DNA of 64,000 bases, from assembly GCA_003220435.1 (NCBI GenBank), contig QHSL01000060.1, positions 47,917 to 111,916 on the forward strand, written 5' to 3'. The position numbers and the translations under genes were made by a program. This stretch comes from Candidatus Rokuibacteriota bacterium. Lineage in GTDB: Bacteria > Methylomirabilota > Methylomirabilia > Rokubacteriales > CSP1-6. Below, one piece after another: positions 4,991-51,383 of this stretch (position 1 is its first letter; each line of letters begins with the position of its first letter). The notes under the pieces are model-generated. The model ran no database searches. It was given only the letters and a program-made list of their open reading frames with translations, and was not told the DNA's origin.

Positions 4991-5753
4991 TCAGCGCGAT
5001 GTACTCGTTGAGCATTCCGCCGCGCACGCGACGGGTAACTCCGGCGAAGGCGCTCGCCCTCAGCACGTCGAGGATCTGGTCCGACGGCACACAGTGGGCG
5101 ATCGTGTCCCAGTAGTACTTCATGAGCAGCTCGGCCTCCCCGCTTCCGGTGCTGAGCCGGGTGAGCAGCGGCAACACGCTTTCGAAGTAGAGCCGGAAGA
5201 CGCGCTGGCCCACGGCTGAGCTCGGCAGCGAGATCTCGAGGATCAATAGCCGCCCACCCGGCTTCAAGACCCGTCGGCACTCGCGGAACGCCACGCCGAG
5301 ATCGGTCACGTGGCGCAGTGCGTAGCCCATGCACAGGAAGTCGAAGTGGTTCGTGGTGAACGGGAGATCTTCCACGATCCCCTGCACCAGGGGAACCGCC
5401 AGCGCCTTGCGGGCCTCCCTGAGCATCCCGGCGCTCGGATCGAGCCCGACGACCGCCCGCGGTTCACGCAGCACGTGCGTCGCCGCCCGGGCCACGAGGC
5501 CGGTGCCGGTGGCGATATCGAGGAACTTCATGCCGTTGCGGAGCCCGGACTGTGTCAGCACCCACCCCCGATAGAATCGTCCCGAGCCCAGCGAGCCCAT
5601 CGCGCAGACCCAGTCGTAGTGCTTCGCCGCATTATCGAAGAGCGCGCTGACGAACGGCCGCCGCTCGCTCGCGCTCTCGTAATATTTCTTGAGCACCGGA
5701 TGCGGCGCCGTCGCCGCCGTCCGATCCGCAGTCTTGTCGCTCATCGGTTCCAC
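4977..5753 (-). CDS. Class I SAM-dependent methyltransferase, UbiE/MenG-like.
   Basis: LDIATGTGLVA is methyltransferase motif I. The product is about 255 aa and overall resembles the UbiE/COQ5 demethylmenaquinone/ubiquinone methyltransferase family. Confidence 0.8.
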   Translation of the reverse strand: MEPMSDKTADRTAATAPHPVLKKYYESASERRPFVSALFDNAAKHYDWVCAMGSLGSGRFYRGWVLTQSGLRNGMKFLDIATGTGLVARAATHVLREPRAVVGLDPSAGMLREARKALAVPLVQGIVEDLPFTTNHFDFLCMGYALRHVTDLGVAFRECRRVLKPGGRLLILEISLPSSAVGQRVFRLYFESVLPLLTRLSTGSGEAELLMKYYWDTIAHCVPSDQILDVLRASAFAGVTRRVRGGMLNEYIALKPAC

Positions 5754-8358: not shown

Positions 8359-9807
8359 ATGATCATCCACGTCAACTTCCTGCCGAAGCCCGGCGACACC
8401 GGAGCCAGCGAGGTGATCGCGTCGCTCGCCGGCCTGCTCGATCAGGGTCGGCTCGACGGCGAGGTGCTCTCCCGCCTGCGGCTTCACCTGGACTGGCTCC
8501 AGTACAAGGCGAACTTCCGTGAGCCGATCACGGTCCGCCACGCCACCGGCGCTCGCGGCGAGCCGACCGCGCTCGCAGAGCTCGCGATCGACGTGCGCCG
8601 CGCGCGGCCCGAGCGCCTCGGCGACGAGCTCGCGCACGCGATCGCGTCGGTCGGCGCCGTGGAGCACGAGGTGGCCGGCCGCGCCGTCCTCGAGGACTGG
8701 GCACCGCTCAGCCGGAGTGCGATCTGGCAGTTCAATCGGCTCTTCTGGCAGCGCCTCGTCGATTGGGAGCGCCAGACGGGCCGGGGGTTCGAGGCGGCGC
8801 TGCCGAGCGGTCGGTCGGACGCGAACCATCCGGCGGCCGTCGCCGACGCGGTCGCCGATTTCTGGACGCTGCTGGTCGAGCTCGACAAGCGTGGCCAACT
8901 CCCGCAGGAGATCTTCGCGCTGGAGATCGGCGTGGGTCCAGGCACGCGGGCCGGGCTCTGGCTCGATCGCTTCAAGGCCCTCGACGAGGCGCGCGCCACC
9001 GGCTTCTATCCCCGCCTGCGCTTCCTGCTCGCGGATTACTCGATGCCGACGCTCGACCGCGCACACCGCGCCGTCGAGGCGCACCGCGACGTCGTCAGCA
9101 CGATCGCCACCGACGCGCTGAACCCGATGCGCGCGCTGTCGTTCCTCCGGTACAAGATCCTCTATGTCCACCTCACCAACGTGTACGACAACCTGCCGGT
9201 GGACGAGCTCGTCCGCCGCGACGGCCAGCTGTATCTGGTCGAGACCCGTGCGTATCTGCCGGAGCCGGCATCGACGGCAATTGCTCAGGCCTTCGGGGTT
9301 GGCCCGTCCGAGCAGCCGGCGACCGTCGGTCGCCTGCTCGAGGCGGGTCCCGACCTCTTTGGCGACCGCGAGCGCGGCGTGGCGTTCTGGCGCGCGGTAT
9401 GGGACGGCGTGTGTCTGGAGGAGCGCCTTCGCCGCCTCGAAGGCATCGCCGACGTGCCGCTGCCGCCCGGGCTCGACGGCACCGACCTGGAGGAGCTGCT
9501 CACGACCGCGCCCGCCGACATCCGGTTTCACCTCTCGGGTGGCGCGGTGGAGAGCTTCATGAACACGGTCCCGCTGTTGCACCCGCGCGGTTATCTCCAG
9601 GTGCAGGACATCTTCGTGGCCACGATGGACGAGTACCGCCAGGGGTTCCGGGGGCCGGGCAAGCTCGACGGCTCGGTCGTGAACTGGGTCAACGGCCCCC
9701 TCCTGCGCGTGGTCGGCGCGCGGGCCGGGTACGACGTGCACTTCGCGCCGTTCCGGTATCGGCCGGGCTCGCGCACGACCATTCTCTACACGACGCTCCG
9801 GGAGTGA
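8359..9807 (+). CDS. Hypothetical protein of 483 aa. It has a weak resemblance to a SAM-methyltransferase-like fold (ExGxGxG).
   Basis: Long ORF with strong codon bias. FALEIGVGPGTRAGLWLD loosely resembles methyltransferase motif I (MidA/DUF185-like). I recognise no confident family. It lies immediately upstream of the core-MetE gene. Confidence 0.55.
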   Translation: MIIHVNFLPKPGDTGASEVIASLAGLLDQGRLDGEVLSRLRLHLDWLQYKANFREPITVRHATGARGEPTALAELAIDVRRARPERLGDELAHAIASVGAVEHEVAGRAVLEDWAPLSRSAIWQFNRLFWQRLVDWERQTGRGFEAALPSGRSDANHPAAVADAVADFWTLLVELDKRGQLPQEIFALEIGVGPGTRAGLWLDRFKALDEARATGFYPRLRFLLADYSMPTLDRAHRAVEAHRDVVSTIATDALNPMRALSFLRYKILYVHLTNVYDNLPVDELVRRDGQLYLVETRAYLPEPASTAIAQAFGVGPSEQPATVGRLLEAGPDLFGDRERGVAFWRAVWDGVCLEERLRRLEGIADVPLPPGLDGTDLEELLTTAPADIRFHLSGGAVESFMNTVPLLHPRGYLQVQDIFVATMDEYRQGFRGPGKLDGSVVNWVNGPLLRVVGARAGYDVHFAPFRYRPGSRTTILYTTLRE

Positions 9808-10859: not shown

Positions 10860-12287
10860 ATGACGAACCCGCTGCGGGTGGCGCTGGCGGCGGGGCGCTT
10901 CTGCTACGTGGTCGAGCTGGTCGCGTCCGCGCTCACCCGCGAGGCGCGGCTGCTGGAGACGGCGTCGGGCCTGGCGCGACTGCCCCAGGTGGTCGCCGGC
11001 AGCGTCACGAGCTACGCGGGCGGCGCGATGGGTCACGATCCGCTGCGGGTGGCCGCGGCGGCGCGCGCCCGCGGGCTGACCCCCAACATCCACCTGACGT
11101 GCGTGAGCCAGGACCGCGGCGGGCTGCGCAAGACCCTGGACGACATGCACGCGCTCTCGCTCGAGAACGTCTTCGCGCTCACCGGCGACTACCCGGGCGC
11201 GGGCGACCAGCCGCCGGTGTTCGATCTGGACTCGGTGCAGCTCGTCCATCTGGTCGACGAGCTGCGCCGGGGCGGCAAGGCGTTTCACGTCACGGTGGCG
11301 GTCTCGCCCTTCAAGTACACCGAAGCGGACTGCGTGTACCAGTACGTCAAGCTCGAGAAGAAGATCGCCGCCGGCGCCGACGCCGCCGTCACTCAGGTCG
11401 GCTGGGATGCGCGAAAGCTCGAGGAGCTCAAGCGCTACCTCGACGCGCGGGGGCTTCGCACCCCGCTGCTCGGCAACGTCTACGTGCTCGGCCCGAGGAC
11501 TGCCGAGCGGATGGCGACAGGCCGGCCGCCTGGATGCTGGGTCTCGCCCGAGCTGCTCGCCGCCGTGCGGGCCGAGAGCCTGGCGCAGGACGGCGGGCGT
11601 CAGGCTCGGCTCGAGCGGGCGGCCCGGACGGTGGCGGTGCTGCGCGGGTTGGGCTACGCCGGAGCCTATATCGGCGGCACCCACGACCCGGTGCAGATCG
11701 CCTGGATCATCAGGCGCGCCGACGAGCTGGCACCGAGGTGGGAGGCCCTCGCCGCCGAGCTTCGCTACGGCCCCGCCGGCGGCTTCTATCTTTCGGCGTC
11801 AGCGCCGCGCCCTCGGCACCCGCGACGGGACGCACTGCCGCGAATGCTGGAGTGGCTCGGGCGCGCGCTGCCGGTCACCCGCGACACGCCCCTCCGGCGA
11901 GCGCTCGCGCGCGTGTTCGCCTGGATCGACCGCCACCGGCCGGCCGCGGTGCTGCTCGAGCACGTCGAGCTCGCGATCAAGAAGCCCCTCTTCGGGTGCC
12001 AGGCGTGCGGCAACTGCGTGCTGGGCCACCTCGAGTACGTGTGCCCGCAGACCTGTCCCAAGCAGATGCGCAACGGCCCGTGCGGTGGCACCGACAACGG
12101 CCGATGCGAGGTGGTGCCGGACAAGCCCTGCATCTGGGTCGCGGTCCACGACCGCGCCAAGGCGTCGGGATCGCTCGACGGCCTCAAGACCTACGTCCCG
12201 CCGCCGCATCGCCAGCTTCGCGACACGAGCTCGTGGATCAACTACTTCCTGGACCGAGACAGCCGGCCCGGTCCGGGCGGAGGCTGA
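10860..12287 (+). CDS. metF: Methylenetetrahydrofolate reductase (MetF-like) fused to a C-terminal MetV-type zinc-ribbon domain.
   Basis: The N-terminal roughly 300 aa form an MTHFR TIM barrel (HLTCVSQDRGGLRKTLDDM, FALTGDYP). The C-terminus has CQACGNCVLGHLEYVCPQTCPKQMRNGPCGG, a Cys-rich MTHFR_C/MetV domain. That domain is a separate small protein in acetogens. Confidence 0.8.
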   Translation: MTNPLRVALAAGRFCYVVELVASALTREARLLETASGLARLPQVVAGSVTSYAGGAMGHDPLRVAAAARARGLTPNIHLTCVSQDRGGLRKTLDDMHALSLENVFALTGDYPGAGDQPPVFDLDSVQLVHLVDELRRGGKAFHVTVAVSPFKYTEADCVYQYVKLEKKIAAGADAAVTQVGWDARKLEELKRYLDARGLRTPLLGNVYVLGPRTAERMATGRPPGCWVSPELLAAVRAESLAQDGGRQARLERAARTVAVLRGLGYAGAYIGGTHDPVQIAWIIRRADELAPRWEALAAELRYGPAGGFYLSASAPRPRHPRRDALPRMLEWLGRALPVTRDTPLRRALARVFAWIDRHRPAAVLLEHVELAIKKPLFGCQACGNCVLGHLEYVCPQTCPKQMRNGPCGGTDNGRCEVVPDKPCIWVAVHDRAKASGSLDGLKTYVPPPHRQLRDTSSWINYFLDRDSRPGPGGG

Positions 12288-12424
12288 TGTGCACCGGTCC
12301 CCTGGGCCAAGATGATCGAGGAGAAGAGCGGCGGCCGCCTCAACGCCGTGTCAGCGCAGGTCGCGCAAGCAAGACACGCAGGCGAGCTCGTGTCGGCAGC
12401 TACTGAGATGCGTTCGCTGAGATC

Positions 12425-12595
12425 AACCGCCGACGCGGCCGCGACGGGGGTCGAGGGCGGGGGTCCCCTGGGCGACCTGTGTAGTCAGGGTTGACCAGAA
12501 ATCTCGCGTCGAGACACAGGCGAAGCGCGTCGCAGCTACCAGGTCGCTCAGGGGACCCCCGGCCTCGACCTCGTCGCGGCCGCAGACGACGCGAA
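12425..12595. repeat. Long imperfect palindrome (hairpin element A). Stems of about 50 bp enclose a 60-nt loop that begins TGTAGTCAGGGTTG.
   Basis: The left arm is 12431-12480 (GCCGACGCGGCCGCGACGGGGGTCGAGGGCGGGGGTCCCCTGGGCGACCTG). Its reverse complement matches the right arm at 12541-12590 with about 5 mismatches or indels. The loop spans 12481-12540. Confidence 0.7.
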
Positions 12596-12600
12596 GGCAG

Positions 12601-13026
12601 CTAAGTGAGGCGCTTGGCGCGAGTCGCCGGCACGAGCTGCCCGTACCTGACGCCTTTGAGCGCGAGCAGCTCGTTGGCGACGGAGCGGATCCGGCGCGGC
12701 GACCCGCGGAGGGCCACGACCTCGAGGCACGTGTGCGCGTCCAGGTGAATGTGGAGCGCCGCGGTGATCGTGCGATAGCTGTGGTGCTGGATGTCGGTGA
12801 GCTTGTCCTCCAGCGCGCGCGTGCCGTGGTCGTAGACCAGCGACAGAACGCCCACCGTCTCGCCCGGCCGCCGTGTCCATTCCTCCTTGACGAGCTCGGC
12901 GCGCAGCAGGTCGCGCACGAACTCGCTGCGGTTCGCGTAGCGGCGGCCGGCGCGCAGGCGGTCCAGCGTGCGCATCAGCCGGGCCGGCAGCGAGACGGTA
13001 AACCGGACGGCGCGCTCGTCGGGCAT
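12601..13026 (-). CDS. nikR: Nickel-responsive transcriptional regulator NikR.
   Basis: The N-terminal ribbon-helix-helix is VRFTVSLPARLMRTLDRL. The C-terminal ACT-like domain carries the Ni-site motif HIHLDAHTCLEV (H-x-H...H-x-C). The product is 141 aa. Confidence 0.8.
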   Translation of the reverse strand: MPDERAVRFTVSLPARLMRTLDRLRAGRRYANRSEFVRDLLRAELVKEEWTRRPGETVGVLSLVYDHGTRALEDKLTDIQHHSYRTITAALHIHLDAHTCLEVVALRGSPRRIRSVANELLALKGVRYGQLVPATRAKRLT

Positions 13027-13082
13027 CGCAGTCGCGATCGTACTGGATCGACCCGTCTCGGCGTGGTATTACCTTTCAGCCG

Positions 13083-15134
13083 ATGTTCATACCCAGCCGT
13101 ATCGCCGGCGCGATCCTGGCCGGCGCCTTGCTGGTGGCGCCCGGCGCTGAAGGCCAGGCGCCGCCCTCCCCCCCGGCGCCGCCGCCTCGAACGGACGAGC
13201 AAGCGCTACCGCCGGTCACGGTGACGGCGCCGCTGCCCGTTTCCGCGTCGTCCGAGACCCTGATCCCGGGACGCGACTTCGAGCTGCGCCCCCAGGGCCG
13301 GCCGGCCGACGTGGTGCGCCTCATCCCCGGGTTCGTCATCAGCCAGCACCAGGGCGGCGGCAAGGCCGAGCAATACTTTCTGCGAGGCTTCGACGCCGAC
13401 CACGGCACCGACGTCGCGCTCTTCGTCGACGGGCTTCCCGTCAACCTCCGGAGCCACGCGCACGGCCAGGGATACGCCGATCTCCACTTCCTGATCCCCG
13501 AGACGATCCAGCGGATCGAGGGGTTCAAGGGGCCCTATTTCGTGGAGTATGGGGATTTCGCCACCGCGGGCGCGGTGAACTTCGTGCTCCGCGACGTGGT
13601 GGACGAGAACGTGGCCGAGGCCGCCGGCGGAATGTTCAACACGCAGCGCTATCTCACGCTCTTCTCGCCGACGCGGGACACCCTCAAGACCCTCGTCGCG
13701 CTCGAGTACTACCGCAACGACGGCGCCTTCGAGCATCCGAACGGCTACCAGCGTTTCAATCTCCTGGCCCGGGCGCGCGCGACCGTGAGTGAGGGGATGA
13801 ATCTCGGCGGGTGGCTCTCCCACTACCAGGCCGAATGGCACGGCTCGGGCGAGATCCCGGTGCGCGCCGTCCGCACCGGGCTCCTCTCGCGCTTCGGGTC
13901 GATCGACCCCAACGAGGGCGGCTACACCCAGCGAAGCAACCTCAACGTCGACTGGAGCTGGCGCCTCGACGAGCAGCAGCTCGTGGCGGTGCGCGCGTAC
14001 GGCAGCTACTACGCGCTCGACCTCTTCAACAACTTCACCTTCTTTCTCAATGACGAGCAGAACGGCGACGAGATCAATCAGCGCGATCGTCGCGTCCTGG
14101 CCGGCCTCGACGCCCGGTACGAGCACGAGAGCAAGCCCTTCGGGGCGAGCCTCACCAGCACCGCGGGCTTCCAGTACCGCATCGACACGCCCCGGGTCGT
14201 CCTCGCGCGCTCGGTGCAGCGCCACCAGCTCGAGCGCGTCCAGGACGTCGACGTCGTCGAGCAGTCGTACGCGCCCTACGTCAAGCTCGACCTCGTCCCC
14301 CTCGACTGGCTGCGCCTCGTCACCGGCGCGCGCGGCGACATCTTCAGCTACGACGTGCGCTCGCGCGTCAACGCGACCGGCGAGAGCCTGGACGGCGAGG
14401 CCACGAGGGCCCGCGCGAACGTGAAGGCCAACCTCGTCCTGGGCCCCTGGTACCGGACCGAACTCTTCGCGAACTTCGGCACGGGTTACCACAGCAACGA
14501 CGCGCGCGCGGTGATCAGCGATCCGCGCCAGCCCGCCCTGCCGACCGCGCGCGGCTACGAGTTCGGCGTCAAGACGCGGGCCATCCCGCGGGTCGAGTTC
14601 TCCGCGACGTACTGGGTCATCGACCTCGCCAGCGAGCTGGTGTTCGTCGGCGACGACGGCACGACCGAAGCTCGCGGGCCGAGCCACCGCGACGGCTGGG
14701 AGCTGGCGCTGCGCGCGAAGCTGCTCGACTGGCTCGAGTTCGCGGGCGACACGACCTTCAGCAACGCGGCGTTCGATACGGGCGAGGCGATACCGCTGGC
14801 GCCGAAGGTGACGGCGCGGGCCGAGCTGACCGCGCGGATGCCGTGGGGGCTCTCGACGAGCTTCGAGATGCGCTACCTCGCCGACCGCTGGGCCGACGAG
14901 GCCCGCCAGCAGACGGCGCGCGGCTACCTGCTCTTCGACTGGACGGCCCGCTATCGCTACAAGTCGATCGAGGCGTTCGTGAGCATCGAGAACCTCTCGA
15001 ACGTCGACTGGCGCGAAGCCCAGTTCTTCTTCACCTCGCGCCTCGCCAACGAGCCCGCTACCGGCGTGCCCGACATCCACTACACCCCCGGCACTCCTCG
15101 CACCGTCCTCGGCGGCCTCGCCGTTCGCTTTTGA
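13083..15134 (+). CDS. TonB-dependent outer-membrane receptor. It is a candidate Ni/Co uptake receptor because it neighbours nikR.
   Basis: There is a signal peptide (MFIPSRIAGAILAGALLVAPGAEG) and a plug domain (DFELRPQGRPADVVRLIPGFVIS...GFDADHGTDVALFVDGLPVN). The 22-strand barrel ends in a terminal aromatic (LGGLAVRF). Confidence 0.85.
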   Translation: MFIPSRIAGAILAGALLVAPGAEGQAPPSPPAPPPRTDEQALPPVTVTAPLPVSASSETLIPGRDFELRPQGRPADVVRLIPGFVISQHQGGGKAEQYFLRGFDADHGTDVALFVDGLPVNLRSHAHGQGYADLHFLIPETIQRIEGFKGPYFVEYGDFATAGAVNFVLRDVVDENVAEAAGGMFNTQRYLTLFSPTRDTLKTLVALEYYRNDGAFEHPNGYQRFNLLARARATVSEGMNLGGWLSHYQAEWHGSGEIPVRAVRTGLLSRFGSIDPNEGGYTQRSNLNVDWSWRLDEQQLVAVRAYGSYYALDLFNNFTFFLNDEQNGDEINQRDRRVLAGLDARYEHESKPFGASLTSTAGFQYRIDTPRVVLARSVQRHQLERVQDVDVVEQSYAPYVKLDLVPLDWLRLVTGARGDIFSYDVRSRVNATGESLDGEATRARANVKANLVLGPWYRTELFANFGTGYHSNDARAVISDPRQPALPTARGYEFGVKTRAIPRVEFSATYWVIDLASELVFVGDDGTTEARGPSHRDGWELALRAKLLDWLEFAGDTTFSNAAFDTGEAIPLAPKVTARAELTARMPWGLSTSFEMRYLADRWADEARQQTARGYLLFDWTARYRYKSIEAFVSIENLSNVDWREAQFFFTSRLANEPATGVPDIHYTPGTPRTVLGGLAVRF

Positions 15135-15270
15135 CCAGCGCGAATCGCGCCCCGTCCTAAAGTCGGCCGTCGTCCCACACCTCGCTGGTTCTAGGCCCTC
15201 GACCGCTCGCAGCGGGTCTGCTAACAGACCTTCAGCAACGCGCGCTCCTGCGTCTCAAGCTTGCGCAACG

Positions 15271-15424
15271 GTAGTCCGGGCGGGGGGCGCGGGGGTGGGT
15301 AGGCCCCTCCGCGGTCCGTGTAGTCAGGGTTGTCCCGAAGGGGAGTTCTTAGAAGAGGAAGCAGCGGGCAGCGGCTACCGGACCGCGGAGGGGCCTACCC
15401 CCCCGCGCCCCCCGCCCGGACTAC
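15271..15424. repeat. Long near-perfect palindrome (hairpin element B). Stems of about 48 bp enclose a 60-nt loop that begins TGTAGTCAGGGTTG and ends GGCTAC.
   Basis: The left arm 15271-15318 is GTAGTCCGGGCGGGGGGCGCGGGGGTGGGTAGGCCCCTCCGCGGTCCG. Its reverse complement matches the right arm 15379-15424 with about 2 differences. The loop shares its first 14 nt and last 5 nt with element A. The arm sequences are unrelated to those of A. Confidence 0.75.
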
Positions 15425-17712
15425 TTAATAGCGACAGCTTTGACCTGGCGGAAGTCCGTAAGCCCGCTGATGGTCTTGAGCACGCCATCCTGCACGAGCG
15501 TGGTCATGCCTTCGGTCTTCGCCTGTACCAGCATCTCGGCGACGCGCGACCTGGTCTGGATGAGGCGCTTCAGCTCGTCGGTCGCGATCAGCAGCTCGTG
15601 GATCGCGGCCCGCCCGCGGTAGCCGGTCTTGCCGCAGGCGCTGCAGCCCTTGCCGCGGTAGAGCACGAACGACTCCTCATACTTGTGGCCGAGCGCGGCC
15701 AGGGCCTCCGCGCCGTACGCCTCGGCGAGCTCGTCGAACTCGCCGCGGTCGGGATGGTACTCCGTCTTGCAGTCGGTGCAGATGCGCTTGACGAGGCGCT
15801 GCGCCATGATGCCCAGCAGCGCGTCGGCGAAGTTGAACGGGTCGAGGCCCATGTCGAGCAAGCGGATGACCGTCTCCACCGAGCTGTTCGTGTGGAGCGT
15901 GCTGAACACCAGGTGGCCGGTCAGCGAGGCTTCGATGCCGGTCGACGCCGTCTCCTCGTCGCGCATCTCGCCGACCATGATCACGTCGGGGTCGGCCCGG
16001 AGGAAGGCGCGCATCGCGGCCGCGAAGTCGAAGCCGATCTTCGGCATCACCTGCACCTGGCGCAGGCCGTACTGCGTGATCTCGACCGGGTCCTCGGCGG
16101 TCCAGATCTTGCGCTCGGGCTTGTTGATGTGGCCGAGGAGCGAGTGCAGCGTGGTAGTCTTGCCCGAGCCGGTCGGCCCGACGCACAGGATGAGCCCGTA
16201 CGGCTTCTCGGCGACCCGCTTGAGCTCGCGGAGGTTGCGGTCCGTCATGCCGAGCTTGTCGAGCGCGATCAGCTCGCTGGCCGCCAGGATCCGCATGACC
16301 ACGTCCTCGTTCTGGTTCGCGGTCGGGATCGTGGCGACACGCAGCTCGATCTCACGGTCGGAGAGCTTGAACTTGATCTTGCCGTCCTGCGGCTTGCGCC
16401 GCTCGGCGATGTCGAGCTGGGCCATGATCTTGATGCGCGCCACGATGGCGCGCCGGTAGGCGCCGGGGATCTTCTGGTACTCCGAGCAGCCGCCGTCGAT
16501 CCGGTACCGGATCACGGTGTCCTTCTGGGTGCCATAGGGCTCGATGTGGATGTCGGAGGCACGCGCCTTGTAGGCGTCCACGATGATCTGGTTGGCGAGC
16601 CGGATGACCGCGCTGTCGTTCTCGTCGAGCTCGCCCAGGCCCATGTCGAGCGTCTCGGTGACGTCTTCGTTCCGCAGGTCGCCGAGGATCGTGCCGATCG
16701 AATCCCTCGCGGTGGTCTCGCCGCCGGCCTGGGCGAGGAAGCGCAGGATGTCCTTCCGGAGCCCGACCGCCCACTTGATCTTCCGGCTCTTCAGCGCCTG
16801 GCTGACGCTGTCCACCCGTTGCAGGTCTTGAGGATTGTCGATGATGACCAGCACACCGTCGTCCTCGCGCCGGAGCGGCATCCAGAAGTTGCGCCGCAGG
16901 TATTCGATCCGAAGATCCTTCATGAGATCGGGCGGCGGGATGATCCGCTCGTCGTACTCGACGAACGGGCACCGGTAGAACTGGCTCAGCGAGACGCCCA
17001 GCTCGTTCGTGGGGACCTTGTACTGCTCGATCAGGATCGACTCGACGTCGGTCTGTCGGCGCCGCGCCTCGGCGATCGCCGAATTCAGCTCGTCCAGCGA
17101 GACTCGGTGCTGCGCCAGCAGGTAGTCGAACTTGGTCTTGGGCCGGTTCTGGCTCTGGATCAGCTGGGTCTGGTTGTTGAACGCGATGCCGAGCGTCTTG
17201 GCGATCCGCGAGACGCCGGTCTCGTCGTCCTTCGTGAAGCGAGGGCCTTTCTTCTTGTTCAGGAGCTGGATCACGCCGATCGTCCGGCCCTCGTGCTGCA
17301 CCGGCATGCCCAGGATCTGCTTGGTCCGGAAGCCCGTCTTCTTGTCCCACGAGCTGTCGAAGCCCAGGGTGGGCGAGATCATCATGAGCTCCGCCCGGTC
17401 GTAGGCGTCCGTGATGTTCACGATCTTGCCGGTGGCGGCGACGAACCCGGCGACGCTCTTTTCGTTGATGGGGAGCCGGATCTCCTTGACCGTGTCGAGC
17501 GCCAGGAACTTCGAGTAGAGCTCCTGCTTGCCGGGCTCGACCGCGTAGATCGTCATCCGGTCGGCGTCGAGCAGGCCGAGGATCTCACCCTGGAGCTCGA
17601 TGAAGAGGCTGTCGATGGTCTTTGCCGCGTGGATGCGGTCGACGAGCTGGACGAGCTTCTGCTCGTACGCGAGGCGCTGCTGTAGGACGACGACCGACTC
17701 TGCTTGGGCCAC
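15421..17712 (-). CDS. Type II secretion / type IV pilus assembly ATPase (GspE/PilB family) with an N-terminal GAF-like domain.
   Basis: Walker A is GPTGSGKTT. The Asp box, Walker B, His box and the C-terminal tetracysteine CTDCK...CSACG are typical of GspE/PilB. The N-terminal roughly 180 aa are GAF-like. I chose the GTG start at 17712 preceded by GGGAGGAAGC. Confidence 0.85.
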   Translation of the reverse strand: MAQAESVVVLQQRLAYEQKLVQLVDRIHAAKTIDSLFIELQGEILGLLDADRMTIYAVEPGKQELYSKFLALDTVKEIRLPINEKSVAGFVAATGKIVNITDAYDRAELMMISPTLGFDSSWDKKTGFRTKQILGMPVQHEGRTIGVIQLLNKKKGPRFTKDDETGVSRIAKTLGIAFNNQTQLIQSQNRPKTKFDYLLAQHRVSLDELNSAIAEARRRQTDVESILIEQYKVPTNELGVSLSQFYRCPFVEYDERIIPPPDLMKDLRIEYLRRNFWMPLRREDDGVLVIIDNPQDLQRVDSVSQALKSRKIKWAVGLRKDILRFLAQAGGETTARDSIGTILGDLRNEDVTETLDMGLGELDENDSAVIRLANQIIVDAYKARASDIHIEPYGTQKDTVIRYRIDGGCSEYQKIPGAYRRAIVARIKIMAQLDIAERRKPQDGKIKFKLSDREIELRVATIPTANQNEDVVMRILAASELIALDKLGMTDRNLRELKRVAEKPYGLILCVGPTGSGKTTTLHSLLGHINKPERKIWTAEDPVEITQYGLRQVQVMPKIGFDFAAAMRAFLRADPDVIMVGEMRDEETASTGIEASLTGHLVFSTLHTNSSVETVIRLLDMGLDPFNFADALLGIMAQRLVKRICTDCKTEYHPDRGEFDELAEAYGAEALAALGHKYEESFVLYRGKGCSACGKTGYRGRAAIHELLIATDELKRLIQTRSRVAEMLVQAKTEGMTTLVQDGVLKTISGLTDFRQVKAVAIK

Positions 17713-17779: not shown

Positions 17780-18973
17780 ATGGCGTCCATGCCCAGACGG
17801 GCCGACGTGATCGTCGTGGGTGGTGGTGCAAACGGGACCAGCACCGCATATCACCTTGCCGCTCGCGGAGTTAGGAGCGTTCTGCTGCTCGAGCGGCACC
17901 ATCTCGGCGCCGGCGCCACCGGAAAATCCGGCGCCCTGGTGCGGATGCACTACACCAACGAGGCCGAGTCCAGGCTCGCGTTCGAAAGCCTCAAGATGTT
18001 TCGCGAATTCCGGAACATCGTCGGCGGCGACTGCGGGTTCGAGCCGATCGGCTTTCTGCAGCTCGTGGCGCCGGGCTTCGAGGCGGCCCTCGAGCGCAAC
18101 GTGACACGGCAGCAGCGCCTCGGGATCGGCACCCAGGTCCTCAGCCCGGATCGGGTGCGGGATCTCCTGCCGGGCAGTCGCGTCGACGACCTCGGCGCCG
18201 CCGCGTGGGAGCCCAACTCGGGCTTCGCCGATCCGAACGCGACGACGTTCGGCTTCGCCGAGGCGGCACGGCGGCTGGGCGCCACGATCGAGACTGGCTG
18301 CGAGGTCACGAGGATCGTCACCGAGCGCGGGCGCGTCGTCGGTGTCGAGACCGCGAACGGACGCGTCGACACCGACACGGTGGTTCTGGTGCCCGGCGCC
18401 TGGGCCGCGCCCCTGCTGAAGCCGCTCGGCCTCGACTTCGGGCTGGCGCCGCACCGGATCCAGATCACCATCTTCCGCTGGCCGGCCGGATTCGACACTC
18501 GCCACTGCGTCGTCATCGACGCCACCCGGCACTCGTGGTTCCGTCCAGAGGGCTCGGCCGCAACGCTGATCGGCGTCGAGCTCGGCGTGGGTCACGCCGA
18601 CCCCGACACGTACGACGAGGGCGTCGATCCGGAGTTCGTGGCGACCTGCCGCGAAGCGTTGAGCGCGCGCCTGCCGGCCTTCGCGAAGGCCACCATGCGC
18701 GGCGGTTGGGCGGGAATGATCATGATGAGCCCCGACGGTCGGCCGATCATCGACCAGATCCCGTCGGTCGCAGGACTCTACTGCATGCTCGGCGACTCGG
18801 GAACCTCGTTCAAGACATCCCCGGCGATCGGCAAGTGCCTCGCCGAGTGGATCGTGGACGGTAAACCGCGGACCGTCGACCTCACGCCGTTCCGCTCGAC
18901 GCGGTTCGCCGAGGGGAGGCTCTGGCAGGACGCGGACAACTACGGGCTCGATGGGCTGACGATTTCCCGCTGA
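17780..18973 (+). CDS. FAD-dependent oxidoreductase (DAO family, sarcosine/glycine-oxidase-like).
   Basis: DVIVVGGGANGTSTAYHLA is a dinucleotide-binding motif. Length and the C-terminal pattern fit the DAO family. Confidence 0.8.
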   Translation: MASMPRRADVIVVGGGANGTSTAYHLAARGVRSVLLLERHHLGAGATGKSGALVRMHYTNEAESRLAFESLKMFREFRNIVGGDCGFEPIGFLQLVAPGFEAALERNVTRQQRLGIGTQVLSPDRVRDLLPGSRVDDLGAAAWEPNSGFADPNATTFGFAEAARRLGATIETGCEVTRIVTERGRVVGVETANGRVDTDTVVLVPGAWAAPLLKPLGLDFGLAPHRIQITIFRWPAGFDTRHCVVIDATRHSWFRPEGSAATLIGVELGVGHADPDTYDEGVDPEFVATCREALSARLPAFAKATMRGGWAGMIMMSPDGRPIIDQIPSVAGLYCMLGDSGTSFKTSPAIGKCLAEWIVDGKPRTVDLTPFRSTRFAEGRLWQDADNYGLDGLTISR

Positions 18974-18977
18974 GCTC

Positions 18978-20378
18978 TCAGCGGCCGAGCGCGGCCAGCA
19001 TCTCCTCCACGCGCGTAAATTTGATCCGGGGTCGTCGCTGGGCCTTCCCGCGCTGTACCTCGATCTCGTTGAGCTTGAGCCAGTCGGCGTAGGAGACGAC
19101 GCGCGGTTGGCGCTCGCGGATCAGCGCCTCGGCCGCGGCGGCGGTCGCCGGCGGCTGGAGCACGGCGCCGATCTCGAGATCCTCGAACATCATCTCGACG
19201 GTCTCGGCCGCGTCCGGCTTGTTGGTGCCGATGACGCCCGTCGGACCGCGCTTGATCCATCCCGCGGTGTACTCGCCGACGAGCGGCTGCTTGCTCGACG
19301 GGTCGAGCACGCGCCCCTTGTCGTTAAGGATGACGCCCCAGCTCTCGTTGAACGGCACGCCCGGCAACGGCACGCCGCGGTAGCCGACCGAGCGGAACAC
19401 GAGCCCGACTTGGAGCTCCTCGAAGCGGTCGGTCGCGCGCGGCTGCAGCGCGCCGGTCGAGGAGGCGTAGAGCTCGTTGCGCACCAGGCGCATAGCCGCG
19501 ACGCGGCCGGCACCGTCACCCCGCAGCTCGACCGGCGAGACGAGGAACCTCAAGACGAGCCGTCGTGACTTGCCCGTCGCCGGGCGCTGCGCATACCCCC
19601 GGAGGATCTCGACCTTCTTCCGCGTGGCCCGGTCCTCGCTGCGCTCGACGGCGGCCCGGCTCAGGTCGTCGAGCTCGACTTCGTCGGGCAGCGCCGTGAT
19701 GTCCGCATCGGCCAGCTCGCCGAGCTCCTTGATCTCGGGATTGGTGAAGGCCGCCTGGGCGGGTCCGCGCCGGCCGAGCAGGTAGACCTCCTTCACGCGG
19801 CTGTGTCGGAGAGTCTCCAGGGCGTAGTCGGCGATGTCGGTGGCGGCCAGCTCCTCCGCGGTCCGGCAGAGGATCCGAACGACATCCACCGCGACGTTCC
19901 CGACGCCGACGACCGCGACGCGTTCCTGCGTGAGATCGAACTCACAGTGGCGATAGTCGGGGTGGCCGTTGTACCAGGCGACGAACTCCGTCGCCGGGTG
20001 GCTCCCGGCCAGGTCCTCGCCGGGAATTCCCATGCGCCGGTCGGTCTGCGCTCCGGTGCAGTACACGATCTGGTGGTAGTGCTCCCGGAGATCCGCGAGC
20101 GTCACATCCTTGCCGAACTCGACGCCTCCGTAGAACCGGAAGCGCGGGTTGGCGGCGACTTTGTCGAACGCAGTGGTGACGAACTTGATCTTCTGATGGT
20201 CGGGTGCGACGCCCAGGCGCACCAGCCCGTACGGTGTGGGCAGCCGGTCGATCAGGTCGACCTCGGCGACCACCTGGGCGTTCTGGAACACGTGGTCGGC
20301 GACGTAGAACCCGGTCGGGCCGGCCCCGATGATCGCGACGCGCAAGGGCCGCGCCGGGGTGCCCGTCGTGAGCGTCAA
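18978..20378 (-). CDS. NADPH:ferredoxin (adrenodoxin-type) reductase, FprA-like.
   Basis: RVAIIGAGPTGFY and VAVVGVGNVAVD are two dinucleotide-binding motifs. The 466-aa length and overall pattern fit the FprA / glutamate-synthase-beta-like family. Confidence 0.8.
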   Translation of the reverse strand: MTLTTGTPARPLRVAIIGAGPTGFYVADHVFQNAQVVAEVDLIDRLPTPYGLVRLGVAPDHQKIKFVTTAFDKVAANPRFRFYGGVEFGKDVTLADLREHYHQIVYCTGAQTDRRMGIPGEDLAGSHPATEFVAWYNGHPDYRHCEFDLTQERVAVVGVGNVAVDVVRILCRTAEELAATDIADYALETLRHSRVKEVYLLGRRGPAQAAFTNPEIKELGELADADITALPDEVELDDLSRAAVERSEDRATRKKVEILRGYAQRPATGKSRRLVLRFLVSPVELRGDGAGRVAAMRLVRNELYASSTGALQPRATDRFEELQVGLVFRSVGYRGVPLPGVPFNESWGVILNDKGRVLDPSSKQPLVGEYTAGWIKRGPTGVIGTNKPDAAETVEMMFEDLEIGAVLQPPATAAAAEALIRERQPRVVSYADWLKLNEIEVQRGKAQRRPRIKFTRVEEMLAALGR

Positions 20379-30771: not shown

Positions 30772-31374
30772 ATGAAGCCCTTCGTGGTCAACCGCTACGG
30801 CCGGATCGTCTTCCCGTTCAACTTCTTCCCCGAGCTCGACTTCTCGATCTTCGGCGACGGCGCGGCGGCGCTCGTCGTGGCGCCGGCGCCGGCCGGCGCG
30901 CCGCCCGACGTCGAGTGGCTCCAGACCTACGCCAGCGGGCCCATGAGCGAGGTCGACTCGATCGTGTGGCCGAACCCCGAGTTCGACAACAACATCACCG
31001 TCTACGGCCCGCAGGTGGTCGCGCTCGTGAAGCGCTACCTCACGCAGATGATCGACGAGCTCCGTGGTCTCCCCGGCCCGGAGGGAGCGCCGGGCTCGCT
31101 CCTGGACGCGGTCGACCTGATCGTGCCCCACCAGGCCAACAAGATGATGGTCATCAAGCTCGCGCAGGCCGCCGGCGTCGCGCCCGACCGGCTCTACTTC
31201 GACATCGACCGGGTGGGCAACACGTCGTCGGCGTCGATCCCGATCGCGATCCAGGACGCGGTCCGCGACCGAGTCATCGACCGCCCGCCGCGCATCTTCG
31301 CCCCGGGCTTCGGCGCCGGCGCCGTCGCAGGCTACATCGTCGCGCGAATCGACCCCGCGATCGTCGCCGTCTAA
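30772..31374 (+). CDS. FabH (3-oxoacyl-ACP synthase III) C-terminal-domain-only protein. It lacks the N-terminal domain that carries the active-site Cys.
   Basis: IFGDGAAALVV, LIVPHQANK and RVGNTSSASIPIA (the His and Asn of the Cys-His-Asn triad) align to the C-terminal half of FabH. The product is only 200 aa. It has its own GAGGGGG Shine-Dalgarno sequence and a TAGAAT -10-like box. Confidence 0.7.
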   Translation: MKPFVVNRYGRIVFPFNFFPELDFSIFGDGAAALVVAPAPAGAPPDVEWLQTYASGPMSEVDSIVWPNPEFDNNITVYGPQVVALVKRYLTQMIDELRGLPGPEGAPGSLLDAVDLIVPHQANKMMVIKLAQAAGVAPDRLYFDIDRVGNTSSASIPIAIQDAVRDRVIDRPPRIFAPGFGAGAVAGYIVARIDPAIVAV

Positions 31375-31433: not shown

Positions 31434-32294
31434 CTAGCCTTTGACGGCGCCGGCGGTGAGCCCCGAAACGTAATAGTCGAGGAACCAGACGTAGATGATG
31501 ACGATGGGCAGGCTCGCCACCACCGCGCCCGCCATCAGCGACCCCCAGTAGTAGATGTCGCCGCGGATCAGGTCGGCGGTGACGCCGACCACGGCGGTCT
31601 TGTTGGCCGTCTGCGAGACGAAGGTCAACGCGTAGGTGAACTCGTTCCAGGTCAGCGTGAAGCCGAACAGGGTGACGCAGACGATCCCCGGGACGGCCAT
31701 CGGCAGCACGATGCGGCAGAGCGTCTGCATGCGGCTGGCGCCGTCCACCAGCGCGCACTCCTCGACCTCGCGGGGAATCGTGCGGAAGTAGCCCATGAGA
31801 AGCCAGGTCGAGAAGGGCACCAGGAAGGTCGGGTACGTCACGATCAACGCCCAGATCGTATCCGAGATGCCGAGCCAGACCACCACCTGGGAGAGCGGCA
31901 GGAAGAGCAGGGTCGGCGGCACGAGGTACGTGATGAACACCGCGGTGCCGAACGTGCCGACGCCACGGTAGCGCAGGCGCGCGAGGCTGTAGCCCGCCAG
32001 GATCGCGATCACGAGCGAGACGCTGGTCGCCACCACGCTGATGATCAGGCTGTTCTTCATCCAGGTCAGGAACTCCGTCTTGAAGAAGAGGTACCGATAG
32101 TGGTCGGTGATCACACCGGTCTGAATGAGGAACGGCACCGCCTTGAGGTTGTAGAGCTCGGCGTCCTTCTTCAGCGAGGTGATCACCATGTAGTAGAACG
32201 GGAACAGCGCGAACGCGATGAACGGGATCATGTTCGCGTAGCCGAACACCGCCGACCGAATCCTCGCTCCGCGCGATCGAACGCCGACGTTCAT
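31434..32294 (-). CDS. Carbohydrate ABC transporter permease (MalG/CUT1-type).
   Basis: There are six TM segments. The EAA loop reads EECALVDGASRMQTLCRIVLP. Confidence 0.85.
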   Translation of the reverse strand: MNVGVRSRGARIRSAVFGYANMIPFIAFALFPFYYMVITSLKKDAELYNLKAVPFLIQTGVITDHYRYLFFKTEFLTWMKNSLIISVVATSVSLVIAILAGYSLARLRYRGVGTFGTAVFITYLVPPTLLFLPLSQVVVWLGISDTIWALIVTYPTFLVPFSTWLLMGYFRTIPREVEECALVDGASRMQTLCRIVLPMAVPGIVCVTLFGFTLTWNEFTYALTFVSQTANKTAVVGVTADLIRGDIYYWGSLMAGAVVASLPIVIIYVWFLDYYVSGLTAGAVKG

Positions 32295-49953: not shown

Positions 49954-51383
49954 GTGCGGCGCTCGCCCACCCGGTGAAGCTTCAATAGATTTGTCGTCCC
50001 TCGGACCCACATCGGTGAGCCGGAGATGATAACGATCACGTCATTGGCACGCATCGAGTCGTCGCCGAGCAGGGTCGCCTCGACCTCCTCGATCATCTCG
50101 TCGGTCGTCTCGACCTTCCGGATGAGACGTGACGAGACCCCCCACGAGAGGGCCAGCCGTCGCTGGACCTCGACGAACGGGGTGAGCGCGATGATCGGCA
50201 CGTCCGGGCGCGCCTGGGAGATCAGTCGGGCCGAGAAGCCCGATTCGGTGAACGCCACGATGGCGCGCGCACCGAGCGCATGCGCCGCAGTCGCCGCCGC
50301 GTCCGAGATCGCTTCCGGGAAGCTCGCGCTCGGACGTCGCCGCCGCTCCCGGTCGATGGCCAGCACCGCGCCGTCCGCGCGCTCCGCGATCCGCGCCATG
50401 ACCGCGACGGCCTCGGCGGGATACCGCCCGGTGGCCGTCTCGGCCGACAGCATGATCGCGTCGGCGCCGTCGAAGATCGCCGTGGCGACGTCCGACACCT
50501 CGGCGCGCGTCGGGCGGAGATGCGTCACCATCGACTCGAGCATCTGGGTCGCGACGATCACGGCGACCTTGGCGCCGCGCGCCTGGCGGATGATCTCCTT
50601 CTGGATGTGGGGAACGTCCTCGAGCGGCACGTCCACGCCCAGATCGCCGCGGGCGACCATGACCGCGTCGACGACGTTCAGGATACCAGGCAGGTTGGCG
50701 AGGACCTCGTGCCGCTCGAGCTTGGCGACGAGCGGCACGTCGTCGGCGCCCTCGGCTCGCAGGAAGCTCCGCACCTCCTCGATGTCGTCGGCCGAGCGCA
50801 CGAACGAGACCGCGACGAAGTCGACGCGCTGTCGGAGGCCGAAGCGCAGGTCCGCACGGTCCTTGTCGGTCAGGCAGGACATCGGCAGCGACACGTGCGG
50901 CAGCGAGAGCCCCTTGTGGTCGCTGATGCGCCCACCGGCCACCACCCGGCACCGGACCTCGTCCGGTAGCACGGCCTCGACGCGAAGCTGGATCATCCCG
51001 TCGTCCATCCAGATCTGGTCGCCCGGCCGTAAATCCTTCAAGAACTCCGGATGGGTGATCGACGCGCGCTCGGCGGTGCCGACGACCGGTCGCATGCTGA
51101 GCGCGAACACACCGTCCGGCTCGAGGTCCACGCGCGCGCCGCCGCCGGGCCCGAACGTGCCCAGCCGGATCTTGGGCCCCTGCAGATCTTGAAGTATGGC
51201 CACCGGCCGGCCCCAGCGGGCCTCGCCTTCACGAATGCGACGGATGACTTCGGCGTGCTCCTCGTGCGTGCCGTGGGAGAAGTTGAGGCGCGCGACGTCC
51301 AAGCCGGCCGCCGCGAGGCGGTCCAGCTCGGCGGTGCTGCTGCTGGCGGGACCGATCGTGCAGACGATCTTGGTCCGGCGCAT
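49950..51383 (-). CDS. pyk: Pyruvate kinase.
   Basis: MRRTKIVCTIGPASSS...ARLNFSHG...MVARGDLGVD...VIVATQMLESM are canonical pyruvate kinase motifs. The product is 477 aa. Confidence 0.9.
   Translation of the reverse strand: MRRTKIVCTIGPASSSTAELDRLAAAGLDVARLNFSHGTHEEHAEVIRRIREGEARWGRPVAILQDLQGPKIRLGTFGPGGGARVDLEPDGVFALSMRPVVGTAERASITHPEFLKDLRPGDQIWMDDGMIQLRVEAVLPDEVRCRVVAGGRISDHKGLSLPHVSLPMSCLTDKDRADLRFGLRQRVDFVAVSFVRSADDIEEVRSFLRAEGADDVPLVAKLERHEVLANLPGILNVVDAVMVARGDLGVDVPLEDVPHIQKEIIRQARGAKVAVIVATQMLESMVTHLRPTRAEVSDVATAIFDGADAIMLSAETATGRYPAEAVAVMARIAERADGAVLAIDRERRRRPSASFPEAISDAAATAAHALGARAIVAFTESGFSARLISQARPDVPIIALTPFVEVQRRLALSWGVSSRLIRKVETTDEMIEEVEATLLGDDSMRANDVIVIISGSPMWVRGTTNLLKLHRVGERRT

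Follow-up and report, generated by a model that had tools for sequence, protein, structure and literature searches.

The question raised by this locus is whether two very long hairpins, which bracket a nikR gene and a TonB-dependent receptor gene in a Candidatus Rokuibacteriota contig, are the ends of a mobile cassette or elements with a history of their own. The window, by which we mean the whole 64-kb stretch of DNA that was analysed, contains the two hairpins, A and B, and their neighbours as listed here (for the hairpins, the strand is the one bearing the conserved head of the loop).

12296-12343, plus strand: 48-nt remnant of dctP (TRAP transporter) between the MTHFR-like gene and A, context only
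12428-12592, plus strand: element A, whole hairpin, type 1, fold of -123.9 kcal/mol, covariance model R1
12435-12479, plus strand: left arm of A, G-rich, pairing with 12540-12583
12480-12499, plus strand: conserved head of A, TGTAGTCAGGGTTGACCAGA, consisting of T, GTAG and a mini-hairpin and fitting the family head pattern
12480-12539, plus strand: loop of A, 60 nt, with head, variable and relatively A+T-rich middle, and GCTAC tail
12540-12583, plus strand: right arm of A, C-rich, its end 17 nt before the nikR stop codon (12601-12603)
12601-13026, minus strand: nikR (Pfam NikR_C and RHH_1), context gene
13083-15134, plus strand: TonB-dependent receptor gene with Plug domain, context gene
15271-15424, plus strand: element B, whole hairpin, type 1, fold of -142.4 kcal/mol, covariance model R1
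15271-15318, plus strand: left arm of B, first bases GTAGTCCGGG
15319-15338, plus strand: conserved head of B, TGTAGTCAGGGTTGTCCCGA, fitting the family head pattern
15319-15378, plus strand: loop of B, 60 nt
15379-15424, plus strand: right arm of B, its terminal CTAC holding, as complement, the TAG stop codon (15421-15423) of the PilB-like gene
end at 15421, minus strand: gene for a GAF-MshEN-T2SSE ATPase (PilB-like), from the domain scan

The stems of both elements are near-perfect, at 45-48 bp each. The arms of A form 43 Watson-Crick pairs and 2 G.T pairs with 1 mismatch, with weaker pairing out to about 12428/12592, while those of B form 46 Watson-Crick pairs with one 2-nt bulge; an identical copy of B is present in L051. 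Both loops start with TGTAGTCAGGGTTG and end with GCTAC, and the R1 covariance model scores 81.7 bits for A and 94.5 bits for B. RNA folding of the two strands, as the preliminary description had proposed, showed both hairpins to be far more stable than shuffled sequences (z of -10.2 for A and -12.4 for B on the plus strand, and of -8.8 and -12.7 on the minus strand; 0/200 shuffles fold as well). The anatomy and coordinates given in that description, namely near-perfect stems, 60-nt loops, a common 14-mer start and a GCTAC end, were reproduced, as was the overlap of the right arm of B with the stop of the PilB-like gene, the TAG complement at 15421-15423 lying inside the arm. Its statement that the stems are completely different was, however, too strong. 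Over the 60 nt up to and including the head, A and B align with 70% identity, and the loop-proximal 25-30 nt of the arms have the consensus ...GGGGGTGCCCnCCGCGACCYG across loci, running into TGTAG of the head. The two stems are therefore not unrelated, since their loop-proximal halves align.

Both elements lie in convergent 3' spacers, where terminator hairpins are expected, and they could in principle be coincidental palindromes or unrelated ordinary hairpin terminators. We give this reading a negligible probability, in view of the fold z-scores of -10 and -12, the 14-mer of the loop start, which occurs twice in the 64 kb (in A and B only) against 0.05 occurrences expected, and the dozens of related, strongly covarying copies elsewhere; neither a U-tract nor a consensus terminator was found at the elements. 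A search for further long inverted repeats of this kind across the window gave none. High-G+C bacteria do possess long, G+C-rich hairpin terminators that lack a U-tract and lie in convergent 3' spacers, with short loops and no common sequence. The Rokubacteria elements resemble these in their G+C-rich convergent-spacer placement and differ from them in the 60-nt loop with its recurring 20-nt head.

The preliminary description had further suggested that A and B delimit a mobilisable cassette. Indeed, the two lie in direct orientation and flank exactly nikR and the receptor gene, and in L060 the MTHFR-like and PilB-like genes are only 16 nt apart, so that all of the interval 12288-15420 is missing there. 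Relatives, however, keep the gene pair at the same chromosomal place without a hairpin. nikR adjoins the receptor gene also in L027, L047, L061 and L062. L061 and L062 carry the array acetyltransferase-nikR-receptor-tonB-PilB (preceded in L062 by MTHFR-dctPQM) with no hairpin beside nikR, the receptor gene or the PilB-like gene; L027 has nikR, the receptor gene and B, but no hairpin after nikR; L047 has B, but a hairpin of a different core type (type 3) after nikR. L035 retains B at the PilB-like gene and lacks nikR, and 1.9 kb of different DNA lies ahead of its receptor gene. B-type hairpins follow the PilB-like gene even where an MFS transporter gene is the neighbour, and the remaining members of the family are single copies at unrelated loci. 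The dctP remnant, which is 94% identical to positions 1555-1602 of L062 within dctP (E 1e-15) and is also matched by L061 and L035, speaks for gene loss by deletion and not for cassette insertion; the compact layout of the window therefore arose by deletions. The receptor of the window is 100% identical to a protein of a metagenome-assembled Candidatus Rokuibacteriota genome. nikR and the receptor gene with the same two hairpins were not found at any other chromosomal position, plasmid or phage, and scans of viral contigs gave 0 matches. The synteny shows the nikR-receptor pair to be ancestral and the hairpins to be later arrivals. A and B are independent of the nikR-receptor module and are not cassette ends; a role as boundary or recombination sites of such a cassette is very improbable.

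Integron attC sites were also considered. These are imperfect palindromes of copy-variable sequence that conserve a single-strand fold and function on one strand; their sequence conservation resides in the outer R''/R' boxes (RYYYAAC ... GTTRRRY) and not in the centre. The Rokubacteria hairpins share with them the variable sequence and the conserved single-strand fold, and would likewise act on one strand. The assignment was rejected, as no RYYYAAC/GTTRRRY boxes are present at the stem bases and a scan of 28 window ORFs revealed no integrase; nor is there a one-orientation array of one-gene cassettes, the genes between A and B being an ancestral divergently transcribed pair, and nikR and the receptor gene occur without hairpins in L061 and L062.

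A and B belong to a repeated, structured nucleic-acid family, which is the structured-element or MITE option of the preliminary description, and the copy search outlined there retrieved dozens of further copies elsewhere. A head-plus-tail scan of genome contigs gave 18 matches, six of them hairpins, all from Candidatus Rokuibacteriota, and the remaining 12 without a stem. A head scan of metagenomes gave 33 loci, about 26 of which have 40-57 bp stems and 59-65 nt loops; the loop length is 59-62 nt in most copies and 65 nt at one locus. At least seven distinct loci with unrelated neighbours are represented in Candidatus Rokuibacteriota genomes and soil metagenomes, the neighbours including nikR, the PilB-like ATPase gene, radical-SAM and phosphoribosyltransferase genes, zwf, gltX, hrcA and an ABC ATPase gene. 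Nearly all copies lie between convergent genes, in 3' spacers, mostly with one arm 0-20 nt from a stop codon. Orthologues of B are present in L013, L035, L027 and L047. In the contigs scanned, each species genome has 1-2 exact-head copies, a count that may omit diverged ones; a covariance-model search of 322 kb found no additional copies beyond those known. Copies found via a neighbouring protein (L055, L057, L058, L061 and L062) have diverged heads, and the invariance of the head is in part an effect of collecting copies by the head pattern. The type 1 family exists, and its copies persist at the same loci across species. We found no published description of it, so that it is apparently undescribed, and nothing in the literature on Rokubacteria repeat content. 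In the whole window there were 0 Rfam matches at gathering thresholds; in E-value mode, the sole matches of types 1 and 3 were to generic microRNA-precursor models, with scores of 28-57 bits where the thresholds are 100-168, and type 2 matched none. A and B are independent members of this Rokubacteria-specific family, type 1, of long-hairpin extragenic repeats.

We also analysed how the stems change. Across copies, 97% of the stem cells in the alignment are paired and 11/20 stem pairs have changed on both sides, with a covariation score of 0.355 compared with 0.13 for shuffled alignments and 0.05-0.08 with slid partners. A set of 11 orthologues from a single locus has 12 pair columns with at least two Watson-Crick types, and three indels each have their mirror image in the opposite arm. 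The covarying arms of the preliminary description are well founded. The stems of orthologous B elements have diverged, yet their pairing is still 48/48 and 49/49, beside PilB-like proteins that are 82-91% identical to that of the window. Identity among these orthologues is 1.00 in the head, 0.94 in the tail, 0.83-0.85 in the arms and 0.60 in the loop middle; for comparison, it is 0.69 at the third positions of codons in the adjacent gene. Strong constraint acts on stem pairing, on the loop length and on the initial 20 nt of the loop, whereas the loop middle drifts. By itself the loop does not fold stably (mean z -0.39). The arms were also compared with the neighbouring coding sequence, of which they might have been inverted duplications; the similarity is not significant for either element (about 8% of shuffles as high for A and about 16% for B), which goes against that origin.

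Distinct non-Watson-Crick events within the stems, read on the head strand, comprise 16 of G.U type and 5 of A.C type (binomial p ~0.03), and the orthologue set has 32 G.U cells, several of them common to many sequences, against 5 singleton A.C cells. The persistence of G.U but not A.C on the head strand is what would be expected of a dedicated structured non-coding RNA without a mobile-DNA history, either a cis-acting 3' UTR or a processed small RNA, in which the long stem would serve as scaffold or as substrate of RNase III, and the head as a recognition or seed sequence displayed by the loop. The strong covariation, the conserved head and loop length around a drifting middle, the retention of copies at orthologous loci across species and the low copy number all fit such an RNA. 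However, G.T is also the most tolerated mismatch in single-stranded DNA, and the strand asymmetry is therefore no proof of RNA. A promoter or terminator consensus was looked for and not found, the loop is devoid of a stable conserved fold, the neighbouring genes are functionally incoherent, and the element occurs in either orientation relative to the same neighbouring genes, being inverted as a whole with respect to its flanking genes in L026. Presence/absence polymorphism and the existence of sister families with unrelated cores and the same style of arms likewise resemble the dynamics of repeat elements. We regard the RNA reading as unlikely.

The same genomes contain two such sister families, which share the architecture of type 1 but have different conserved cores. 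At least three families thus have this architecture, in which a G+C-rich stem of 35-56 bp encloses a core of 60-90 nt. The combination of a conserved core with locus-specific self-complementary arms, noted at first for A and B, is general to three core families. Their presence is variable. The type 2 site, directly after a stop codon, is filled in L010, L019, L037 and L041 and empty in L008, L023, L032, L039 and L043. L061 and L062 carry a type-1-like copy between DAO and Pyr_redox genes, where the spacer of the window is 4 nt, and the 3' spacer of the PilB-like gene is 15-20 nt without a hairpin in some relatives and 158-220 nt in others.

The second suggestion of the preliminary description was a mechanism that builds palindromic arms around a conserved core. 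On such a reading, the core alone would be mobile or recognised, and self-templated (fold-back) synthesis would produce the arms or renew them. Three core families, each with a conserved core and different, often 100% complementary arms, are consistent with this, and so are the mirrored indels and the position after nikR, which is occupied by type 1 in the window and by type 3 in L047 and is empty in L027. In L010, moreover, some 30 nt at the 3' end of the adjacent gene are included in the inverted repeat (0/300 shuffles as high). At 11/12 loci, A and B included, extension into the flanks is not significant. The arms of inserted type 2 elements have no counterpart in the empty site and were therefore not copied from the target, and the loop-proximal consensus common to different loci implies that arms are inherited with the element. 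The arms also change at a lower rate than synonymous sites, as would be expected under selection for pairing. Taken together, we hold this origin of the arms to be quite improbable.

Hairpin-forming MITEs (Correia/NEMIS, ERIC, bcr1 and Nezha) are non-coding, intergenic elements of about 150-190 bp that form one full-length hairpin, show presence/absence polymorphism between close relatives and can be co-transcribed with neighbouring genes; their copies have terminal inverted repeats in common, because the transposase binds these. The Rokubacteria elements are similar in size, non-coding, full-length hairpins of polymorphic presence (type 2). Insertion polymorphism between related genomes, as in MITEs, is seen for type 2, for the type-1-like copy of L061 and L062 and for the spacer of the PilB-like gene. 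Unlike in MITEs, the arms are the variable part, only their loop-proximal portion being common to copies, and no consistent target-site duplication was found among 19 elements, 17 of which have no significant flanking direct repeat. The repeat GGCAGCTA flanking A at 12397 and 12597 is equalled by 9% of shuffles and that of type 3 in L047 by 3%, and at type 2 the only flanking repeat is an imperfect one of 9-11 nt. No insertion sequence that shares the ends and could be the parent was found.

Together with MITEs, REP-type elements are the known repeats that come nearest to the family. In copies collected by the head pattern, the head reads GTAG and then TC(A)GGG-TTGT-CCCGA, a bulged 5-bp stem capped by a 4-nt loop; an outer GTAG at the stem end occurs only in B-type and zwf-locus copies. 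REPs are small palindromes that follow a conserved tetranucleotide, in most cases GTAG (PMC8266576); in REPMb, a palindrome of 10 nt interrupted by 4 nt lies close to GTAG, and a BIME consists of a REP, a linker and an inverted REP (PMC8266576; PMC3733652). REPs, BIMEs and REPINs are extragenic palindromes and inverted doublets mobilised by the Y1 HUH transposases RAYT/TnpAREP, the cognate gene being single-copy in the genome (PMC8266576; PMC3733652; bioRxiv 10.1101/2022.05.22.493013). Like these, the type 1 elements are extragenic and non-coding, lie mostly after genes, between convergent or tandem genes, and fold into hairpins whose function would be strand-dependent. The GTAG tag directly 5' of a small imperfect hairpin in the type 1 head looks REP-like, the order of arm, conserved linker and inverted arm recalls the REP, linker motif and inverted REP of a BIME, and long persistence by vertical descent is shared with REPINs (bioRxiv 10.1101/2022.05.22.493013; PMC8266576; PMC3733652). 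In contrast to REPs, type 1 is most conserved at its centre and not in its arms, which differ strongly among copies, and its stems of 45-56 bp are far longer. Single arms showed no palindromy (nine arms, z of -1.7 to +1.3 against shuffles), and 'two inverted REPs' therefore does not describe the stems. REPs are typically very numerous and near-identical, whereas type 1 occurs twice in 64 kb and in 1-2 exact-head copies per genome. Neither the 28 window ORFs scanned nor the gene tables for related loci showed a transposase, RAYT/TnpAREP or other partner protein, and none of the ten best-ranked papers for RAYT or REPIN terms links these with Methylomirabilota or Rokubacteria.

On balance, the reading that we favour, and judge moderately probable, is that of a REP/BIME-like or MITE-like repeat that is now kept as a 3'-end hairpin, its function being predicted from sequence features. 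Palindromic non-coding units would settle in short spacers after stop codons and then be kept, as are REP/BIME/REPIN elements and hairpin MITEs. The head-bearing strand probably functions in single-stranded, folded form, given that G.U (or G.T) is tolerated on that strand only. The head would be a putative GTAG-tagged REP-type mini-hairpin, serving as a recognition site for a trans-acting protein, for which the obvious candidate is a transposase-like Y1 (HUH) enzyme of the REP-associated kind, with an RNA-binding factor as the alternative. A hairpin of about -120 to -140 kcal/mol, if transcribed together with the 3' end of the upstream gene, may block 3' exonucleases, and the same hairpin may act as a barrier to read-through between convergent genes, both as in REPs. 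The arms might be kept complementary by arm-to-arm templating, through template switching or mismatch correction within the hairpin, together with selection.

A bolder extension, which we think rather unlikely, is a superfamily in which only the short central module is recognised and the 45-56 bp arms are free and continually re-templated arm from arm by fold-back or template-switch synthesis, with an HUH-type nick at the GTAG head as a possible starter. If true, such re-templating would make the element a self-correcting palindrome, a mode of maintenance or transposition undescribed for REPs or MITEs of bacteria. A REP-like recognition system may be present in a phylum with none known, and the combination of conserved centre and free arms would widen the REP/REPIN-type definition if there is a partner enzyme. 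Diverged orthologues with full pairing and mirrored indels are, in any case, a natural data set on how long palindromes stay perfect. For annotators, two hairpins that look alike on either side of a gene pair are not necessarily the sign of a mobile cassette. Rokubacteria are uncultured, abundant in soil and have large genomes, and type 1 with its two sister families provides a ready marker for 3'-end and intergenic annotation in these bacteria, for which a covariance model is easily built from the present alignment.

Re-examination of the window bore out the two long hairpins, elements A and B, with the positions, stems and 60-nt loops given for them in the preliminary description. They stand one on each side of the nikR and TonB-dependent receptor gene pair, in the following arrangement (window positions).

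12435-12479, left arm of A, pairs with the right arm
12480-12539, loop of A, 60 nt
12540-12583, right arm of A
12601-13026, - strand, nikR
13083-15134, + strand, TonB-dependent receptor gene, Plug domain
15271-15318, left arm of B
15319-15378, loop of B, 60 nt
15379-15424, right arm of B
end at 15421, - strand, GAF-MshEN-T2SSE (PilB-like) ATPase gene

Both elements are placed between convergent gene ends, and the TAG stop codon of the PilB-like gene falls within the right arm of B, as had been proposed. The shared loop ends were likewise confirmed: both loops start with TGTAGTCAGGGTTG and end with GCTAC (the tail), and the common 14-mer at the loop start is absent elsewhere in the 64-kb window (0.05 expected by chance), as is any other long inverted repeat of this kind. 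On the head strand the sequence at the loop start is T-GTAG-TCAGGGTTGTCCCGA; the head, the conserved first ~20 nt of the loop, consists of GTAG and then a bulged 5-bp hairpin with a 4-nt loop. As single strands, A and B fold at -124 kcal/mol (z -10) and -142 kcal/mol (z -12), respectively, and their opposite strands are nearly as stable; a stable conserved fold of the loop by itself was not supported (mean z -0.39). A consensus scan of positions 12000-16000 for promoters and terminators detected no promoter, and nothing at A or B. A -35-like TTGACC/TTGTCC in the head lacks a consistent -10 partner in our reading of the copies.

The search for further copies, suggested earlier, found dozens of copies in Rokuibacteriota genomes and metagenomes; this family is referred to here as type 1. 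With one genome scanned per species, the combination of head and tail gave 18 matches, 6 with a long stem, all from Rokuibacteriota, and 12 without a hairpin. A metagenome scan for the 20-nt head retrieved 33 loci; in about 26 of these the stem measures 40-57 bp and the loop 59-65 nt. The copies fall at no fewer than seven distinct loci with unrelated neighbours, among them nikR, the PilB-like gene, a phosphoribosyltransferase gene facing a radical-SAM gene, an ABC ATPase gene, zwf, gltX and hrcA. Almost all copies occupy spacers between convergent genes and have one arm at a distance of 0-20 nt from a stop codon. A covariance model, which misses the diverged heads of loci L055 to L058, added no type 1 copy in the 322 kb searched. 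Viral contigs gave 0 matches for the type 1 head and for the core of a second family (type 2, below), and a phage or plasmid origin was rejected on this ground.

Contrary to the initial view that the stems of A and B are completely different, they show 70% identity over 60 nt ending in the head, and the loop-proximal 25-30 nt of the arms have a cross-locus consensus ending in CGCGACCYG. A check of arm covariation showed that pairing is strongly maintained: across type 1 loci 97% of cells are paired, both sides have changed in 11 of 20 pairs, and the covariation score is well above shuffle and slide controls. At one locus with 11 orthologues, at least two Watson-Crick types occur in each of 12 pair columns, and three indels in one arm have their mirror image in the other. 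Where the adjacent PilB-like protein is 82-91% identical to that of the window, the stems of the orthologous B elements have diverged but still pair at 48/48 or 49/49 positions. In the orthologue set, identity is complete in the head (1.00), falls to 0.94 in the tail and 0.83-0.85 in the arms, and is lowest in the loop middle (0.60); third codon positions of the neighbouring gene stand at 0.69. Constraint thus acts on the head and arms, and the loop middle drifts at a kept length. It is the design of a conserved centre with free arms, together with the mirrored indels, that makes the family unusual.

Read on the head strand, the distinct non-Watson-Crick events in the stems comprise 16 G.U versus 5 A.C (p ~0.03); the orthologue set contains 32 G.U cells, several of which recur in many sequences, versus 5 A.C cells, all singletons. 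Judged from the sequences, this bias suggests that the head-bearing strand functions in folded form, either as RNA or as single-stranded DNA. An arm taken alone does not fold, which rules out the arms as REP units. The possibility that the arms are inverted copies of neighbouring coding sequence found little favour: such similarity is significant only at the radical-SAM locus (L010), and not for A, B or nine other loci.

An inverted-repeat scan of the compared loci uncovered two further families, built like type 1 around different conserved cores.

L010, L019, L037, L041 and L052, type 2, core 78-92 nt
L037 4993-5152, L010 2540-2701, L041 1885-2044 and L052 1153-1310, type 2, arms 40-42 bp (33 bp in L052), core ACGCGGCACGCGTGCGCTGCTCCGCGGCGGCTGGGCTCCATCCGGGCGC...
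L047 2369-2549 and 8928-8996, type 3, core 69 nt with internal hairpins, 56-bp perfect stem

Type 2 shows a sign of mobility: it is present or absent at one site among close relatives, immediately 3' of a stop codon, and the empty site has no counterpart of its arms. The two type 3 copies are found in one 9-kb contig; their cores are 94% identical and their arms different. A conserved centre with locus-specific arms that complement each other, as first noticed in A and B, is thus seen in three core families and is therefore a general rule in these genomes. One type 3 copy occupies the post-nikR position, where the window has A; orthology of its arms with those of A was considered and dropped, the complexity being too low for identity values to discriminate. 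Locus L046 contains a shortened type 2 copy joined to an adjacent type 1 arm.

The gene order in relatives contradicts the idea that A and B delimit a mobilisable nikR-receptor cassette, since the gene pair is found at the same place without flanking hairpins. L062 and, with some decay, L061 have the order acetyltransferase, nikR, receptor, tonB, PilB-like, DAO, with no hairpin beside nikR, the receptor gene or the PilB-like gene; L062 also has an MTHFR-like gene and dctPQM immediately upstream. In L047 the acetyltransferase gene and nikR are separated by a type 3 hairpin, and the B position is taken by type 1. L027 has B only, and L035 reads PilB-like, B, 1.9 kb of other DNA, receptor, dctM, dctP and MTHFR-like, with nikR absent. 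The MTHFR-like and PilB-like genes of L060 are 16 nt apart. The window itself belongs to a Candidatus Rokuibacteriota metagenome-assembled genome, and its receptor matches a protein of such an assembly at 100% identity; near-identical soil contigs have both A and B. Just after the MTHFR-like stop codon, the window retains a 48-nt remnant of the TRAP transporter gene dctP (12296-12343). This remnant has 94% identity to the intact L062 gene and by sequence comparison shows that dctPQM and the acetyltransferase gene were deleted in the lineage of the window. Given these gene orders and the remnant, a larger ancestral cluster was reduced by deletions to the layout of the window. On this comparison, nikR and the receptor gene belong to the ancestral set, to which A and B were added separately.

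Hairpins of the B type, with diverged heads, are also found 3' of the PilB-like gene where an MFS transporter gene comes next (L055, L057 and L058), and in other relatives the spacer after the PilB-like gene is only 15-20 nt (homologues P0114 and P0119, from gene coordinates). The C-terminus ...AVAIK* is common to almost all of the PilB-like homologues listed (n=120), so the stop codon is older than the hairpin. In L058, ~60 nt comprising the core and the start of the right arm (5450-5510) are directly repeated just upstream of the left arm (5340-5400), and may have been left by an older copy or by unequal recombination. L056, an unrelated contig of lower G+C with planctomycete-type domains, has a PilB-like paralogue followed by a 21-bp stem enclosing two small hairpins and the string TGTAGGTTAC (9296-9406), probably a different local repeat.

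Signs of mobility were seen at two other places. The DAO and Pyr_redox genes converge in the window with a 4-nt spacer (18971-18980); the same spacer is ~240 nt in L062 and ~260 nt in L061 and there holds a type-1-like hairpin with the head TGTAGTCAGCGCTGCCCG (12904-13051 and 12683-12831, respectively). L026 (3807-3949) shares both flanking genes with ten other orthologues, yet its entire type 1 element, arm mismatches included, lies between them in the reverse orientation, which disqualifies it as an independent test of strand selection; the arrangement is reminiscent of small inversions associated with hairpins in chloroplast DNA. No transposase appeared among the 28 ORFs scanned in the window, and target-site duplications gave no consistent or general signal across the elements tested. 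A is flanked by imperfect direct repeats, GGCAGCTAcTGAG (12397-12409) and GGCAGCTAaGTGAG (12597-12610, containing the nikR stop codon), a possible target-site duplication whose match score was equalled in 9% of shuffles.

REPs are palindromes preceded by GTAG, REPMb being a 10-nt palindrome interrupted by 4 nt (PMC8266576), and BIMEs consist of a REP, a linker and an inverted REP placed after genes (PMC8266576, PMC3733652). The type 1 head, GTAG and then a short interrupted hairpin, looks like the layout of a small REP, and the family is therefore filed next to REP/BIME/REPIN and hairpin MITEs. It is not placed inside them: its arms are neither palindromic units nor conserved between copies, its copy number appears low and it shows no consistent target-site duplication. 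Rfam gave nothing in the window at gathering thresholds and no real match in E-value searches with types 1, 2 and 3, and we found no relevant literature on the motif, on Rokubacteria repeats or on RAYT/REPIN in this phylum; most likely, the family is an undescribed variant near these classes. We infer that a palindromic, non-autonomous repeat colonised 3' spacers, where it is now kept as a putative 3' hairpin of very high stability that carries a conserved recognition module, and that its arms would be kept complementary by selection on the single-strand fold, aided by arm-to-arm templating.

Some further features of the window were recorded. An exact 16-nt direct repeat, GACCTTCAGCAACGCG, is present in the receptor gene (14753-14768) and in the spacer before B (15227-15242). 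A 31-nt inverted repeat, 81% complementary with its halves 100 nt apart (31304-31334 and 31435-31465), lies in the 3' coding ends of convergent KAS III-like and ABC permease genes; it is without the type 1 head and may be due to chance in G+C-rich DNA. Finally, positions 43867-50040 (- strand) hold an ORF of ~2057 codons for a hybrid histidine kinase with eight GAF domains, HisKA, HATPase_c and a receiver domain.
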